A stretch of DNA of 30,945 bases from Alphaproteobacteria bacterium (lineage in GTDB: Bacteria > Pseudomonadota > Alphaproteobacteria > Micropepsales > Micropepsaceae). Where the stretch lies: assembly GCA_031378595.1 (NCBI GenBank), contig JANNEL010000037.1:1-30945 (forward strand), given 5' to 3'. Position numbers and translations under genes: made by a program. This document shows positions 1-5,504 of this stretch, one piece after another (position 1 is the stretch's first letter; each line of letters opens with the position of its first letter). The notes beneath the pieces were generated by a model. That model was not told the DNA's origin, searched no databases, and was given only the letters and a program-made list of their open reading frames with translations.

Positions 1-2053
1 TCGATTGAACCATGGGCACAAGGCGCGCGCGGAAATCGTTCAGCACGGGTTCCAAACGCTTACGCGTCATGCCCGGTTCGTATTCGTCCAGCAGGATGAC
101 ATAGGGATCGGTGTCAGGATCGATCGCCTTCGACGTTTCGCGGGCGATGGCGACGAGTTCGCCGAGTGCGGGTGCGAGGAGCTTGAAGTCGTTGGCTTCG
201 CGGGCATCTTCCCATGCGGCAGTGGCACGGGCGCGCGCGGCGGCGTAGGCGCGTACCAGTTCGGAGGGGATGGCAAGGTCGCTTGAGCGAAGGTCGCGCA
301 GGAGTTCGATCTCGCGGCGCCAGCGTTCGTCGCCATCACGGGCGACCGCCACTTCTTCGATCAGATCGCCGAGGTGATCGGACGTCAATAGCCCATGACG
401 TGCTGCTTCGAGTGTTGCCAGTTGTTCGCCGCGTTCGTCGCGACCCCCGTCGGGCAGCACCGTTTCTTCATCCCATTCGAGGAGCGCGATCGCGTTGTCG
501 AAATGCTGGAGTTCGGCAATCTTCGAACGAAGCGCTTCTTCGGCGCCGTCGCTGCGGCCCTGAGAGCGCTTCGGTACGCGCAGTTCGCGAGGCGGGTGTG
601 CGACAAGGACCGCCGCCATGCCGCCGTGCTGTGCCACGTTCACGACCTGCTTTTGGCTGACGCGGCACATGATGCCGAGGCCGTTTTCGGTGGGGGCAAA
701 GCCCATGACCGCGTAGAACGGTTCGGCGAACACGCGGCCGTCTTTACCCACGATCGGGAACTCGTGGACCGGAAGGCGTGTCGCCTTCTGCACCACCCAG
801 TTTTCTTCGGTGTCGCCGGCGTTTGCGACTGCTTCGTCGATGAGTTTCTCCCAATCGGCGGCCGAAGTTGATGCACCGATCGTAACGCCTTCGCCGCCGT
901 AGGACCGGTTCGGCTTCATCACGAGCTCTTCGCGATGGAGGCGCAAGAATTCGAGCAGGTCGCCTTCGACATTGTGCGTCAGCGTCGTCTTGCGGTCGCC
1001 GACGATGCGGGTCCACAGCACGTGACGACGAAACAAGCGGCATTCTTCGGCGCTGAAATACTTTTCTGCGATGGCCGGGTCAGTGAGCACTTCCCAGCAG
1101 CTTTTGTGGTCGAAGTCGCCGACGAGCGAGGAGACGATACGGTTCTGCTTGAAAAGCTGGCGCATCGCCTCCAGCGGTTTGCCCAGTTCTTCCTCGAGTT
1201 CGATGAGATCGCGGACTTCGTAGTCGCGATAGGCGACGTCGACGCATTCGTCGCCGTAGAAAACCTCGCCGTCCTTCAGACGCAGTTCGCTGGGGTCGGC
1301 GTGCGTGATGGTGAGATTGTGGCGCTTCGCCAGATACGAACTCAGCACCGACTGCTCGTTGATGCCGTCTTCGGCGTATTTCGGTTCCACGAAGCTCAAG
1401 CGGCATTTCGTGCGGCCGAGCGCGCGGGCGTGGTCGATCAGCGTTTGGATGAAGAGGTCGCGTTGATCGCGCGGGAGTTCGATCCTGAGCGCGGGATCGT
1501 GATCGAGCAGCGTGGGCACGATATCGCGCATGACGAGCTGTTCGGCGAGCGGCGCGTAGTTGATGCCGCCGACGCCGGAGAGGTTTGCCTCCATGAAGTG
1601 CAGCGTGTCTTGCCAGCCTGCTGCGGTGAAATCGCAGACAGCGTCCAGACGTCCGTAGACCGTGTTGTTACGTTCATGCGCTGGGGTCCAAGTGTCGCGC
1701 AGCCAGCCTTCCTCGCCGGGCGTGATTGCGATGACGCGCTTCACCTGCGGGTCGTTCAAGTACAAAGACGGTAACCGTTTCAATGCGTCGGTGAGGCGCT
1801 GGCAAACGTGTTGGACGTAAGCGAGTTGCTCATTCATCGCGAGAAGTGGACGCAACATTACTGGGATAGGTTCGAACTTCCCGTCGCGTTCGTAGGTGAA
1901 CTCGTTCTTCTCGGAGTCGGCTCGGATGCGCTGGCCGATCTGAGCGAACGTCAGGTCGTTGATGTGGCCGGCCGCCTTGCGCACGCGGCTGTCGAGCGAT
2001 GCGCCTGCGAGGCCGAGGGTTTCGTTTGGACTGAGGATACTTGGCGTCGTCAT
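1..2053 (-). CDS. Fusion protein (3'-truncated by window edge): N-terminal circularly permuted ATP-grasp / glutathionylspermidine-synthase-like ligase (~2053-600) plus C-terminal M32 (carboxypeptidase Taq-like) metallocarboxypeptidase (~535-1)
   Basis: Manual translation from ATG at 2053 (MTTPSILSPNETLGLAG...) is open for 684 codons to the edge. Ligase motifs: YGRLD (1657-1643), FMEAN (1597-1583), LVMKPNRSYGGEGVTIG (K at 916), WVVQ, VVNVAQHGG. M32 N-terminal motifs: LLEWDEETVLPDGGRDERGEQLATL (W at 475), AWEDAREANDF, YVILLDEYEPGMT. Absent from the ORF track because there is no in-window stop. Confidence 0.9.
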   Translation of the reverse strand, partial: MTTPSILSPNETLGLAGASLDSRVRKAAGHINDLTFAQIGQRIRADSEKNEFTYERDGKFEPIPVMLRPLLAMNEQLAYVQHVCQRLTDALKRLPSLYLNDPQVKRVIAITPGEEGWLRDTWTPAHERNNTVYGRLDAVCDFTAAGWQDTLHFMEANLSGVGGINYAPLAEQLVMRDIVPTLLDHDPALRIELPRDQRDLFIQTLIDHARALGRTKCRLSFVEPKYAEDGINEQSVLSSYLAKRHNLTITHADPSELRLKDGEVFYGDECVDVAYRDYEVRDLIELEEELGKPLEAMRQLFKQNRIVSSLVGDFDHKSCWEVLTDPAIAEKYFSAEECRLFRRHVLWTRIVGDRKTTLTHNVEGDLLEFLRLHREELVMKPNRSYGGEGVTIGASTSAADWEKLIDEAVANAGDTEENWVVQKATRLPVHEFPIVGKDGRVFAEPFYAVMGFAPTENGLGIMCRVSQKQVVNVAQHGGMAAVLVAHPPRELRVPKRSQGRSDGAEEALRSKIAELQHFDNAIALLEWDEETVLPDGGRDERGEQLATLEAARHGLLTSDHLGDLIEEVAVARDGDERWRREIELLRDLRSSDLAIPSELVRAYAAARARATAAWEDAREANDFKLLAPALGELVAIARETSKAIDPDTDPYVILLDEYEPGMTRKRLEPVLNDFRARLVPMVQS

Positions 2054-2217: not shown

Positions 2218-3303
2218 ATGGGCCGGGTTTTATTGTGGTTGTTTCTCGCTCTGCTGTTGGCTGCTGGCGGGTGGGTCTATTTCTTCCTGGTGGACGCGGG
2301 GGTGTTTTTGGACCTTAAGCCGACGTCGGTCGGCGTCTGCCGGCAGGTCACGGCTGGTGGCGTTGTCGGCGTTGAAGATATCGCCATCGATCATGAAACG
2401 AAGATTGCCTACCTCGCGGGCTACGACCGGCGGAAAGCGATCGGGGCTGGAGCGACACCCAACGCGAACGTTCGCGGCGCCATCTGGACCTACGATCTGA
2501 ACACGCCCGACGCCGTACCGGTGGACGCTACAACGGCTGCACTGCCCGACGGGTTCTCGCCGCATGGCATCAGCCTTTATCGCGGTGCGGACGGACGCAA
2601 AGTGTTATTTGCGATCAGCCATGCGGGTGGAAAGCACTCGGTCGAGATTTTCGACGTGAATGGCGCAGCCTTAACGCATCGGCGGACGGTTGCGGGGCCG
2701 GAGCTCTTGTCGCCGAATGATGTCGTCGGCGTTGGGCCTGATGCGTTCTTCGTGACGAACGATCACGGCAACGCTGCCGGATGGCGGCGGTCTGCAGAAG
2801 ATTACATGCGCCTCAGAGAATCGACCGTGCAGTATTTCGACGGCGCGAAGTTTGCCACTGCGTTGAGCGGCATCGGCGGCGCGAACGGCATCAACGTGAG
2901 TGCCGATGGGCGTTCGCTCTATCTCTCGGCAGCGTCGGAACGCACGGTCTATGTCTATGACCGCGATCGGGCAACGAACGCATTGAAGCAGCGGGCGGCG
3001 ATCAAGGTGCCCGGTTTCGCCGACAATCTCGATGTGCTGGCGAATGGCGACTTGCTGCTCGGGCTGCACTCCAAGATATTGCAGTTCCTGGAGCATGTGG
3101 GCGATGCCACGAAGCCTTCGCCCAGTCACATCATGTATCTCAAGGCGGATGGGAAGGGCAGTTTCGTTGCGCGCACGATCTACTACAATTTGGGTGACGA
3201 AATATCGGGGGTCAGCGTCGGCGCGGGTGTCGATAAGCGTCTGCTGATTGGGTCGGTGTTCGAGCCTAAGATCTTGGATTGTGTTTGGGATGGTGCGCCC
3301 TAA
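2218..3303 (+). CDS. Paraoxonase/arylesterase-like six-bladed beta-propeller lactonase with N-terminal hydrophobic anchor
   Basis: GGAGG at 2205-2209 precedes ATG 2218. PON-type motifs VEDI, FSPHGIS, ISH, SPNDV, VTNDH, ANGIN, ADNL, GLH. Confidence 0.85.
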   Translation: MGRVLLWLFLALLLAAGGWVYFFLVDAGVFLDLKPTSVGVCRQVTAGGVVGVEDIAIDHETKIAYLAGYDRRKAIGAGATPNANVRGAIWTYDLNTPDAVPVDATTAALPDGFSPHGISLYRGADGRKVLFAISHAGGKHSVEIFDVNGAALTHRRTVAGPELLSPNDVVGVGPDAFFVTNDHGNAAGWRRSAEDYMRLRESTVQYFDGAKFATALSGIGGANGINVSADGRSLYLSAASERTVYVYDRDRATNALKQRAAIKVPGFADNLDVLANGDLLLGLHSKILQFLEHVGDATKPSPSHIMYLKADGKGSFVARTIYYNLGDEISGVSVGAGVDKRLLIGSVFEPKILDCVWDGAP

Positions 3304-3955
3304 GACCGTCAAGATCGCCGTCGGCTCGGGGCAGGTTTCCGGCCTGCTTCTGACACCGCAATCGCCGCGCGCGGGCTACGTGTTCGCGCACGGCGCCGGT
3401 GCGGGCATGGCGCATGCGTTCATGGAAGCGGTCGCGCAGGAGTTGGCGGAGCGTGGTATCGCCACGCTGCGCTATCAGTTCCCCTACATGGAACAGGGCG
3501 GCAAGCGGCCCGATCCGCCCAAGGTCGCGCACGCCGCCGTGCGGGCGGCGGTTGCGAGGGCGCGGGAGCTGCTGCCGGGGATAACGCTTGTTGCCGGCGG
3601 CAAATCGTTCGGCGGGCGGATGACGTCTCAGGCGGAGGCCGTGGAGCCGACTGGCGTGAAGGGGCTCGCGTTCTTCGGCTTTCCGCTACATCCAGCTGGC
3701 GCGCCCTCCGACGAACGGGCGGCGCACTTGTCCGATGTTCTTGTGCCGATGCTGTTCTTGCAGGGGACGCGGGATGCGCTTGCCGACGTCACGCTGCTGA
3801 AGCCGGTGGTTAAGTCGTTGGGCAAACGTGCGACACTGTATCTTGTCGCGGATGCCGATCATTCTTTCCACGTTCCGGCCAAGAGTGGCCGCAAGGATGC
3901 CCAGGTTCGCGCCGAAATACTGGATGCTTTTGCAGCTTGGGTGGCCAGCCTGTAA
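3290..3955 (+). CDS. Alpha/beta hydrolase (KANL3/Tex30-like, dienelactone-hydrolase-like)
   Basis: FAHGAGAG, nucleophile elbow [28 protein letters not shown] 3290 overlaps the upstream gene end. Confidence 0.85.
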
Positions 3956-3995: not shown

Positions 3996-5504
3996 ATGTT
4001 TCGTTCCCTGCTTTCGGTCGGCGGCTTTACGCTCTTGAGCCGCATGACCGGCCTCCTTCGCGACATGGTCATGGCGCCCATCCTTGGGCACGGCGTGCTG
4101 TCGGACGCGTTTTTCGTGGCGTTCCGCTTGCCGAACCACTTTCGAACGATTTTTGCCGAGGGTGCGTACAACGCGGCGTTCGTACCGATGTACACGGGCT
4201 TGCGCGCGCAGAACGAAGAGAGTGCGCATCGCTTCTCGCGCGAGATGCTAGGCTGGCAGATTGCGGTCCAGGTGGTGCTGTTGGCTGTTGCGCTCGTGGC
4301 GACGCCCTATCTCGTGGCGCTGCTGGCGCCGGGGTACGTGGGCAAGCCCGAGCAAATGGGGCTTGCGGTAAGCCTCACGCGGATCACGTTTGCCTATCTG
4401 CTGTGCATCGCGGTGGTGACGCATCTCGGCGGCATGCTGAACGCGGAGAAGAGATTTTGGGCGGCGGCGGCCGCGCCAGTTTTGCTCAACATCGTGATGG
4501 CGGGCGCGCTCAGCGTTGCGTTCCTGTTTCCGAGTGCTGGGTACGCGGCCGCGTGGGGCGTGGTCGCAGGCGGCGTCGCCGAGTTGCTGCTTCTTGTTTT
4601 CGCCGCGTGGTTTGCGAAGTTGCCGGTTGCGCCTGCGCTCCCGTCTGTCGACCAGAATGCGCGCACGTTTCTGCGGCGGTTTGGGCCAGCGACGCTGGGT
4701 GCGGCCGGTGTGCAACTCGCGCTCTTTGCCGACACGATTTTGGCGAGCTTTCTCGGCGCGGGATCATACACGTCGCTCTACTACGCCGACCGCGTGAACC
4801 AATTGCCGATGGGCGTGATTGCGATCGCGCTTGGAACGGTGTTGTTGCCGGAGATGTCGCGCAGCGCGCAGGCCGGCGATACGGCGCAGACGGCGCGTAC
4901 GTTCAATCGTGGCACGGAGATGGGGCTGCTGCTGACGATGCCCTGCCTCGCGGCGTTCTTCGTGTTTCCCGACGCGATCATGGAAGGTTTGTTCGCGCGC
5001 GGCGCGTTCAATGTGGATGCGGCGCGTGCAGCTGCGTCCGTGTTGGTTGCGTATGCTGCGGGGTTGCCGGCGTTCGTCGTGCTGCGCACGGTGACACCTC
5101 TGTTTCATTCGACGGGCGACACGCGAACGCCCGTTATTGCGACGGTCGTTGCGATGGTCTGCAATCTGGCGGTCAAGTTTGGGCTCATTGTTGGTCTTGG
5201 CTACGGCGTCGAAGGTTTGGCGCTTGGTACGGCCGTCGGCGTCTGGGTGAACGTGCTGGTGCTTGGCGCGTTCGCGTGGCGGCGCGGGATGGTGCGCGTC
5301 GATGCGCAACTGATCGACAATGGGTTGCGGTTTCTCGGCGGAACGTTGCTTGCGGGGTTGGTCGCCGCGTTGGTTGCGCAACCGCTGCTAACTTCGCTCG
5401 CTGGCGTCACGTTTGAACGGTCGCTGGTGTACGTCGCTATCTTAGGTCTTTTGACCCTTGCGGCCTACGCGCTGACGGTGCTTGGCCTTGGGTGGAAGCG
5501 GTGA
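3996..5504 (+). CDS. murJ: Lipid II flippase MurJ (MviN)
   Basis: TLLSRMTGLLRD, SDAFFVAFRLPNHFR, FAEGAYNAAFVP, LYYADRVNQLPMGVI; 502 aa with many hydrophobic helices. Confidence 0.93.
   Translation: MFRSLLSVGGFTLLSRMTGLLRDMVMAPILGHGVLSDAFFVAFRLPNHFRTIFAEGAYNAAFVPMYTGLRAQNEESAHRFSREMLGWQIAVQVVLLAVALVATPYLVALLAPGYVGKPEQMGLAVSLTRITFAYLLCIAVVTHLGGMLNAEKRFWAAAAAPVLLNIVMAGALSVAFLFPSAGYAAAWGVVAGGVAELLLLVFAAWFAKLPVAPALPSVDQNARTFLRRFGPATLGAAGVQLALFADTILASFLGAGSYTSLYYADRVNQLPMGVIAIALGTVLLPEMSRSAQAGDTAQTARTFNRGTEMGLLLTMPCLAAFFVFPDAIMEGLFARGAFNVDAARAAASVLVAYAAGLPAFVVLRTVTPLFHSTGDTRTPVIATVVAMVCNLAVKFGLIVGLGYGVEGLALGTAVGVWVNVLVLGAFAWRRGMVRVDAQLIDNGLRFLGGTLLAGLVAALVAQPLLTSLAGVTFERSLVYVAILGLLTLAAYALTVLGLGWKR

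Follow-up and report, generated by a model that had tools for sequence, protein, structure and literature searches.

A predicted circularly permuted ATP-grasp ligase fused to an M32 carboxypeptidase in Micropepsaceae and other bacteria

The fusion gene and its completion across two contigs

The stretch of DNA considered here, referred to as the window, comprises 30,945 nucleotides (nt) from a metagenome-assembled genome (MAG) of the alphaproteobacterial family Micropepsaceae (contig JANNEL010000037.1). At its left end it carries most of a gene in which a circularly permuted ATP-grasp domain, predicted to be a carboxylate-amine ligase, is joined in frame to a zinc carboxypeptidase domain of the M32 (carboxypeptidase Taq) family (Table 1). 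The minus-strand frame codes for 684 amino acids (aa) and is free of stop codons up to the left border of the window, which is also where the contig ends (C482, in an assembly that consists of 753 contigs and is 93% complete).

Table 1. Features of the window discussed in the text (strand in brackets; residue numbers refer to the fusion protein).
Feature	Position	Strand	Basis or remark
Fusion gene, first 684 codons	2..2053	(-)	open-frame listing; ATG at 2053
Circularly permuted ATP-grasp amide-ligase domain (predicted), aa 1-487	593..2053	(-)	fold and profile matches
R135-L-D137 (in YGRLD, aa 133-137)	1643..1651	(-)	family-invariant; corresponds to Cp1B R139/D141
E155-A-N157 (in MEAN, aa 154-157)	1583..1591	(-)	E-x-N Mg2+/phosphate site
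K380-PNRSYGG387, ATP-binding lysine and glycine-rich loop	893..916	(-)	aligns with KEVQGSGG of 3n6x
VVNVAQHGG, aa 470-478, C-terminal signature of CP-ATP-grasp proteins	620..646	(-)	aligns with VVNSSQGGG of 3n6x
Inter-domain linker HPPRELRVPKRSQGRSDG, aa 486-503	545..598	(-)	P488, L491, P494 and R496 conserved among fusions
M32 (carboxypeptidase Taq) domain, N-terminal 177 residues	2..532	(-)	Pfam
Arylesterase/SMP-30-like beta-propeller protein, hydrophobic N-terminal segment	2209-3303	(+)	divergent, upstream of the fusion
Abhydrolase_11	3248-3955	(+)	divergent, upstream of the fusion
MurJ	3996-5504	(+)	divergent, upstream of the fusion
Open reading frame, 329 aa	5817-6806	(-)	no Pfam family at E<=0.001
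Open reading frame, 428 aa	8937-10223	(+)	no Pfam family at E<=0.001

With respect to the missing part of the gene, Peptidase_M32 has exactly two matches in the same genome, namely the piece in the window and a second piece on another contig (C188:21-1049) that covers profile positions 144-489. Bases 101-132 of C188 agree exactly, over 32 nt, with window positions 1-32 read as reverse complement, and past this overlap C188 keeps the same frame through an HEGGH motif until a stop codon is reached. A virtual join of the two contigs codes for a protein of 991 aa with one terminal stop, which is 89.8% identical from end to end to a relative of 992 aa (P0001), and near-identical relatives are continuous across the point where the window gene breaks. 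Nucleotides 1-100 of C188 share 66% identity with the window and contain an in-frame stop; they look like an artefact of the assembly end or of strain variants where the de Bruijn graph breaks, and it is very likely that the join is true for this MAG. The joined protein of about 991 aa shows no N-terminal signal-like sequence, and a scan of the window protein against NCBIfam matched no family.

A preliminary description, made from the letters of the window, had proposed an uninterrupted minus-strand frame here, a protein roughly 1000 aa long in all and, beyond the contig end, an HExxH motif and a stop codon. All three proposals agree with the data: the frames of about 1000 aa found in relatives show no hidden stop, the joined protein has nearly the length proposed, and C188 supplies both the HEGGH motif and the terminal stop of an M32 domain that is complete. 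That two separate genes were joined by an assembly error or a frameshift could be suspected from the fragmentation of the window genome, in which the gene is split over two contigs, and from one relative (L096) that reads as two overlapping open reading frames (ORFs). However, a continuous frame of about 990 aa is present in thousands of independent assemblies, among them a 5.2-Mb single-chromosome MAG and a contig of 2.6 Mb, so that an artefact is in practice refuted.

The ligase half

All motifs quoted in the preliminary description for the first half of the protein (YGRLD, MEAN, KPNRSYGG, WVVQ and VVNVAQHGG), together with the linker, are present in the translation, WVVQ being located at aa 419-422. 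In addition, E155 and N157 precede K380 and G386-G387 in the sequence, which is the hallmark order of the permuted topology. In Pfam, CP_ATPgrasp_2 (PF14403) scores 18-20 bits on the window protein and thus stays below its cut-off of 32, CP_ATPgrasp_1 (PF04174) does not match it and is passed only by occasional relatives (e.g., P0029 with 26.4 vs. 23.1), and GSH_synth_ATP and GSH_synthase do not match it either. As the Pfam score is below threshold, the assignment to the ATP-grasp enzymes required profile as well as fold comparisons.

A profile built from 70 members of the family matches the CP_ATPgrasp protein 3n6x with an E-value of 1.1e-13, colinear over about 440 residues, and the fungal ligase Cp1B with an E-value of 3e-9. 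An AlphaFold2 (AF2) model of aa 1-497 is confidently folded, with a predicted local distance difference test score (pLDDT) of 75.8 and a predicted template modelling score (pTM) of 0.76. In structure comparisons by Foldseek and VIA-align the best fold match is homoglutathione synthetase (Z 22.8 over 417 residues, root-mean-square deviation 3.8), and further matches are YjfC (Z 20.8), human glutathione synthetase (20.2), Cp1B (19.5), GspS (18.9) and 3n6x (18.8). Permuted members of the superfamily hence superpose at Z 18.8-22.8 over 370-430 residues; the classical ATP-grasps LysX, E. coli GshB, RimK and Ddl reach Z 6-7.5 only, over the C-terminal 200 residues or so.

At the level of single residues, 17 alignment columns are invariant in the 70 sequences, down to an identity of about 27%, and include R135, D137, E155, N157, K317, K380, P381, G386, G387, Q422 and N472. 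The catalytic set is invariant in fused as well as in stand-alone members at 28-48% identity, and all residues required for ATP/Mg binding and acyl-phosphate formation are conserved in the ligase half. In Cp1B, the residues R139, D141, E163 and N165 surround the nucleotide, and alanine at any of these positions abolishes or attenuates activity (PMC12568646).

The N-terminal half is therefore a member of the ATP-grasp superfamily and of its circularly permuted branch, complete as had been proposed for the window, and from its residues we conclude that it is a predicted active carboxylate-amine ligase. Given the significant profile link to 3n6x on the one hand and the sub-threshold Pfam score on the other, the sequences argue for a sister subfamily of CP_ATPgrasp_1/2 that current models do not capture, and not for a member of these families as currently defined.

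Two other readings of this domain have to be considered. As the domain scores below the Pfam thresholds of the CP_ATPgrasp families, and as the product of the ligase is not known, it might perform no ligation at all and instead be an ATP-binding module of regulatory or substrate-recruiting function that gates an ordinary M32 carboxypeptidase. However, the full catalytic set, beyond the nucleotide-binding residues, is invariant in fused and stand-alone members alike, and peptidase-free stand-alone members exist, so that the domain must have a function of its own; we consider a non-ligating domain very improbable. In turn, the top fold matches, eukaryotic-type glutathione and homoglutathione synthetases, might suggest that the domain is the glutathione synthetase of the cell, fused to a housekeeping peptidase. 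Against this, the genome encodes a GshB of canonical type (PF02955, 240 bits) as well as its own GCS2-type glutamate-cysteine ligase, the fusion is missing from most of the family and the class, unlike a housekeeping gene, and in addition to the lack of a GSH_synth_ATP or GSH_synthase match mentioned above, the identity to these synthetases is 10-14%. The presence of GshB and GCS2 led to the rejection of a housekeeping glutathione synthetase, which has next to no probability left.

The M32 half and the linker

At the end of the frame, where the preliminary description had seen the beginning of an M32 domain, Peptidase_M32 (PF02074) matches aa 508-683 with profile positions 2-179 of 489 (E-value 1e-36, 127 bits vs. 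a cut-off of 25). The remainder of the domain on C188 scores 385 bits, and the M32 half of P0001 scores 513 bits across the full profile. The HEGGH motif is located at position 761 of the joined protein and lies outside the window, together with HEAQ, DDVRLT, IRATSDE and GVLQDSHW, on C188:133-1055. HEGGH represents the HExxH zinc site and HEAQ the HE(S/A)Q motif, whose Glu is the third zinc ligand, and the DxRxT, IRxxAD and GxxQDxHW motifs of the M32 family have their counterparts as well. Across 116 fusions all six canonical M32 motifs are kept; HPG replaces HPF only in the clade of the window, HPF being retained by most fusions. Among stand-alone M32 proteins, those nearest to the fused M32 half share 45-53% identity with it. 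By these features, residues 505-991 or so are predicted to be a complete and ordinary M32 zinc carboxypeptidase. A specialised M32 active site was ruled out, the motifs being canonical and HPG being confined to one clade.

In the full-length AF2 model of P0001, a 92%-identical relative, both domains are confident (mean pLDDT 87.8, pTM 0.55) and residues 492-500 have a pLDDT below 50, which suggests that a short flexible tether holds the two domains together. Docking of the ligase and M32 halves as separate chains gave a score of 0.00, which weighs neither way. Taken together, the protein of about 991 aa appears to be two intact enzymes on a flexible tether.

Distribution of the fusion

The fusion is common in other genomes. 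A homologue search with the window protein returned more than 2000 matches, which the databases name either 'carboxypeptidase Taq/M32' or 'hypothetical'; the top 120 of them are 62-92% identical, and 117 of these 120 are longer than 950 aa. Of 80 genome loci examined, 70 contain a complete ORF, and of these 68 code for the fusion including HExxH, while the other two end early (L089 and L090, with 811 and 570 aa, respectively, possibly frameshifts or pseudogenes).

In Micropepsaceae the fusion is found in 46 of 120 sampled genomes, always as an open frame of about 1000 aa, and in the genus of the window in 28 of 34 genomes, in contrast to one of 400 genomes in a sample of the whole class. Copies in MAGs labelled Planctomycetota/Planctomycetaceae (L042-L091) are 64-67% identical to the alphaproteobacterial fusions. 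In the tree the two sets interleave, and this suggests that the gene has passed from one phylum to another, although some of the MAGs seem to be labelled unreliably ('uncultured Flavobacteriaceae' being an example). Because of its scattered occurrence and the planctomycetal copies, the fusion gene is to be regarded as patchily distributed and probably mobile between phyla.

Stand-alone relatives, their peptidase partners and the origin of the fusion

An exhaustive search with only the ligase half yielded 1743 relatives, most of which are stand-alone proteins of 455-490 aa with 30-48% identity. The two closest stand-alone ligases (P0125 and P0127) are each encoded head-to-head with a separate M32 gene, and three others (P0129, P0136 and P0138) adjoin pairs of TldD/PmbA genes. 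For a broader survey, 80 metagenomic loci were found with a profile of stand-alone members only and dereplicated at 80% identity, resulting in 47 clusters. In 15 of these the ligase is adjacent to TldD/PmbA, in three a separate M32 gene lies nearby, in four the ligase is fused to M32, and the remaining 25, many of which have short flanks, are without a detected peptidase. When the count is limited to clusters in which each flank measures 1.5 kb or more, 12 of 23 have an M32 or TldD/PmbA partner. All other neighbours of the stand-alone ligases are heterogeneous (a kinase, a GT4 glycosyltransferase, a BioB-like radical SAM enzyme, an SDR and a SpoU methylase). The sole recurrent partners are thus TldD/PmbA and M32, both of which are oligopeptide-degrading zinc metallopeptidase families. 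Furthermore, one ligase relative of 676 aa (P0192) carries an N-terminal Peptidase_Mx domain, a putative zinc metallopeptidase, and would by its sequence represent another ligase-peptidase fusion, which is independent of the first and has its domains in reverse order. The expectation that CP-ATP-grasp ligases are found near peptidases accordingly holds for the window family, with TldD/PmbA and M32 as neighbours and Peptidase_Mx as a fusion partner.

A maximum likelihood tree of 112 ligase domains was computed by a quick IQ-TREE run (LG+G4, midpoint root), with branch support from the Shimodaira-Hasegawa-like approximate likelihood ratio test (SH-aLRT). All 32 fusions together with L096 form one clade (SH-aLRT 100), the sister group of which consists of four head-to-head ligase/M32 pairs (SH-aLRT 94; joint clade 98). 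Ligases linked to TldD/PmbA form the next branch outwards and are also the prevailing type in the other half. From this topology, the fusion appears to have arisen once, in a lineage in which the genes for ligase and M32 were already arranged head-to-head. In L096, a 66%-identical ligase ORF overlaps the M32 ORF by 38 nt, such that only a single frameshift in the linker seems to separate the locus from a fusion; as it nests within the fused clade, either the gene was split secondarily or the sequence contains an error.

A third partner of the split pairs did not emerge, since L092 and L008 carry unrelated genes downstream of the ligase, and a 64-aa ORF in L092 that was considered for this role is without support. 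In a separate lineage (L127:4911-9122, also L132, L133 and L135), genes for the ligase, a DUF6616-like ORF, a SpoU-type RNA methyltransferase and M32 follow each other on one strand. At L097:3452-6491, a stand-alone M32 gene, whose product is 51% identical to the fused M32, overlaps an upstream gene of the AMP-binding (ANL adenylate-forming) type by 11 nt; a different carboxylate-activating enzyme would there be translationally coupled to an M32 peptidase.

Neighbourhood of the fusion gene

Upstream of the fusion, the arylesterase/SMP-30-like and Abhydrolase_11 genes are syntenic in close relatives only, and an arylesterase-like gene at this position recurs in just 14 of the 80 fusion loci. 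Beyond the M32 stop codon on C188 an MFS_2 transporter gene is located on the opposite strand. In an 86%-identical relative (L005:2232-13195) the fusion gene is followed by a gene for a Peptidase_S46 (dipeptidyl-peptidase), and an M16 peptidase gene is situated 3 kb away.

Proposed function

In glutathione synthetase and in ATP-grasp ligases of the permuted branch a carboxylate is phosphorylated and an amine is attached to it. Glutathione synthetase adds a free L-amino acid to a carboxylate, thereby creating a new C-terminal residue. M32 enzymes, in turn, trim C-terminal residues from short peptides, their active site being a deep channel that admits only short unfolded oligopeptides. For Cp1B, too, free L-amino acids have been described as the amine substrate (PMC12568646). 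The relatives of the ligase half thus form the kind of C-terminal amide bond that M32 enzymes cut, and pairing a 'writer' with an 'eraser' in one protein is therefore chemically coherent.

By analogy, the ligase half would phosphorylate a carboxylate at the expense of ATP and attach a free amino acid or amine to it, resulting in a new C-terminal amide bond, and the M32 half would hydrolyse C-terminal peptide bonds. The two halves might act in opposition and in this way set the level of a product, as in glutathionylspermidine synthetase/amidase, or they might act in sequence, trimming and then re-extending a peptide so that its C-terminus is remodelled. Since stand-alone ligases are repeatedly found beside zinc peptidase genes, the fused halves probably cooperate on the ends of short peptides. 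On balance, we lean towards both activities serving a single pathway that acts on short peptides of the cytoplasm or on a peptide-like metabolite, be it as opposed or as sequential steps.

Several observations weigh against such a common pathway. About half of the well-flanked stand-alone ligases have no adjoining peptidase. None of the 80 fusion loci reveals a neighbour that is conserved across lineages, beyond the closest clade, and hence nothing about the substrate can be read from the genomic context. In the fusion no feature pointing to regulation was identified, and unregulated opposing activities would amount to a futile cycle consuming ATP. Finally, the contig join depends on an overlap of 32 nt next to the 100 diverging nucleotides of C188 (66% identity), and the C-terminal half of the window genome's own protein apparently comes from an imperfect assembly.

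Alternatively, the coupling might serve salvage, in that M32 frees amino acids from oligopeptides and the ligase at once builds either one of these or the shortened peptide into a specific dipeptide or gamma-glutamyl-type metabolite, for instance an osmolyte, a thiol or a storage compound. This would explain why M32 and TldD/PmbA, both non-specific, can stand in for each other as partner peptidases, as expected for mere suppliers of building blocks. The use of free L-amino acids as amine substrate by Cp1B and glutathione synthetase fits as well, and the flexible tether and the low pTM suit a loose coupling. However, the cytoplasm is rich in free amino acids, so that a dedicated fused supplier seems needless, and conserved downstream pathway genes are absent from the 80 fusion loci. 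Salvage is therefore unlikely, although it deserves to be kept in mind.

The preliminary description had seen in the fusion a candidate system for adding amino acids to, and removing them from, a carboxyl group, be it on the C-terminus of a protein, on a small peptide or on a storage polymer. Whereas the anatomy of the protein and its peptidase company have stood up, the tagging of protein C-termini looks less likely than an action on short peptides or small metabolites, because the characterised structural relatives are small-molecule enzymes, M32 enzymes accept oligopeptides only and no target gene is conserved nearby. In such a system, comparable to RimK or tubulin tyrosine ligase, the ligase would add residues to the tail of a target and M32 would erase them. 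The chemistry is compatible, as the ATP-grasp enzymes RimK and LysX modify protein C-termini and share the core fold (Z about 7). In contrast, the nearest structural relatives (Z 19-23) are without exception small-molecule enzymes, the deep channel of M32 enzymes is generally held to take only short unfolded peptides, and neither fusions nor split pairs have a conserved gene for a target or carrier beside them, so that protein tagging is distinctly improbable. In a more general form, the ligase family together with an interchangeable M32 or TldD/PmbA peptidase might constitute a general bacterial system for rewriting the C-terminal residues of cytoplasmic peptides or of flexible tails on proteins. 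Prokaryotes would then have their own equivalent of the tyrosination/detyrosination and glutamylation/deglutamylation cycles, here in one polypeptide; we regard this idea as rather doubtful.

Relation to known systems

The closest analogues in terms of logic are GspS of E. coli (PDB 2io7) and trypanothione synthetase-amidase, in which a permuted ATP-grasp-type ligase and a hydrolase that undoes the amide likewise reside on one polypeptide. The ligase folds of GspS and of the window protein superpose with Z 18.9 over 378 residues at about 12% identity. However, the hydrolase of GspS is an N-terminal CHAP cysteine amidase, in contrast to the C-terminal M32 domain of the window protein, so that the domain order is reversed, and no CHAP domain was matched by Pfam in the window protein or in the relatives scanned. 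The fusion would thus work like GspS by analogy without being a member of the GspS family.

Glutathione and homoglutathione synthetases (3kal, 1m0w, 2hgs) and Cp1B (9cjn) share the permuted topology and the R-x-D...E-x-N tetrad, but are stand-alone proteins that are not linked to peptidases and are 10-14% identical to the window ligase. Cp1B is the ligase of E-64 biosynthesis, for which this tetrad is essential (PMC12568646). By profile, the CP_ATPgrasp_1/2 proteins (3n6x Mfla_0391, Rv2411c, sll0335) are closest, with the VVNxxxGGG tail and the K-x-x-x-x-x-GG loop in common, and peptidase association is a theme shared between these families and that of the window. The comparative genomics of Iyer et al. 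2009, by which the permuted ATP-grasp families were defined, is said to have predicted that CP_ATPgrasp proteins, together with peptidases, make small peptides or modify proteins. The partners differ, being alpha-E/transglutaminase or M20/GAT-II for CP_ATPgrasp_1/2 and M32 or TldD/PmbA for the window family. M32 enzymes such as Thermus TaqCP and B. subtilis YpwA are normally single-domain proteins of about 500 aa, to which the window protein adds a ligase of 500 aa in front. Tubulin tyrosination/detyrosination, the glutamylation cycles of TTLL and CCP, and RimK follow a similar logic, with an ATP-grasp enzyme adding and a carboxypeptidase removing residues at a C-terminus; however, these systems employ non-permuted ATP-grasps and M14 or vasohibin peptidases, as separate proteins and on protein substrates.

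In a literature search that did not cover Iyer et al. 2009, no paper linking M32/carboxypeptidase Taq with ATP-grasp was found, in agreement with the earlier impression that the architecture had not been characterised. The term 'circularly permuted ATP-grasp' was met in passing mentions in three papers only, and the combination of ATP-grasp and TldD led only to the ammosamide PEARL pathway. New here are the joining of the two contigs, the Rosetta-stone evidence from split-gene pairs, the association with TldD/PmbA, the single-origin tree and the figures on distribution.

The fusion is thus uncharacterised and mis-annotated, with a predicted ATP-dependent ligase of 500 residues hidden in thousands of database entries. 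To our knowledge, GspS and trypanothione synthetase-amidase, which control thiol-polyamine conjugates, are the only kind of bifunctional ligase/hydrolase of this fold that has been studied, and a permuted ATP-grasp combined with M32 would be a second and unrelated pairing of this type. As the protein is self-contained and has no conserved partner genes, it lends itself directly to tests in vitro, and ATP-grasp ligases with a broad amine scope, e.g., Cp1B, are useful as biocatalysts. For the biology of the bacteria concerned, the pairing and its oligopeptidase company point to an unexplored peptide metabolism, which may consist either in a small peptide metabolite that is new and comes with its own means of turnover, or in the enzymatic editing of peptide C-termini.

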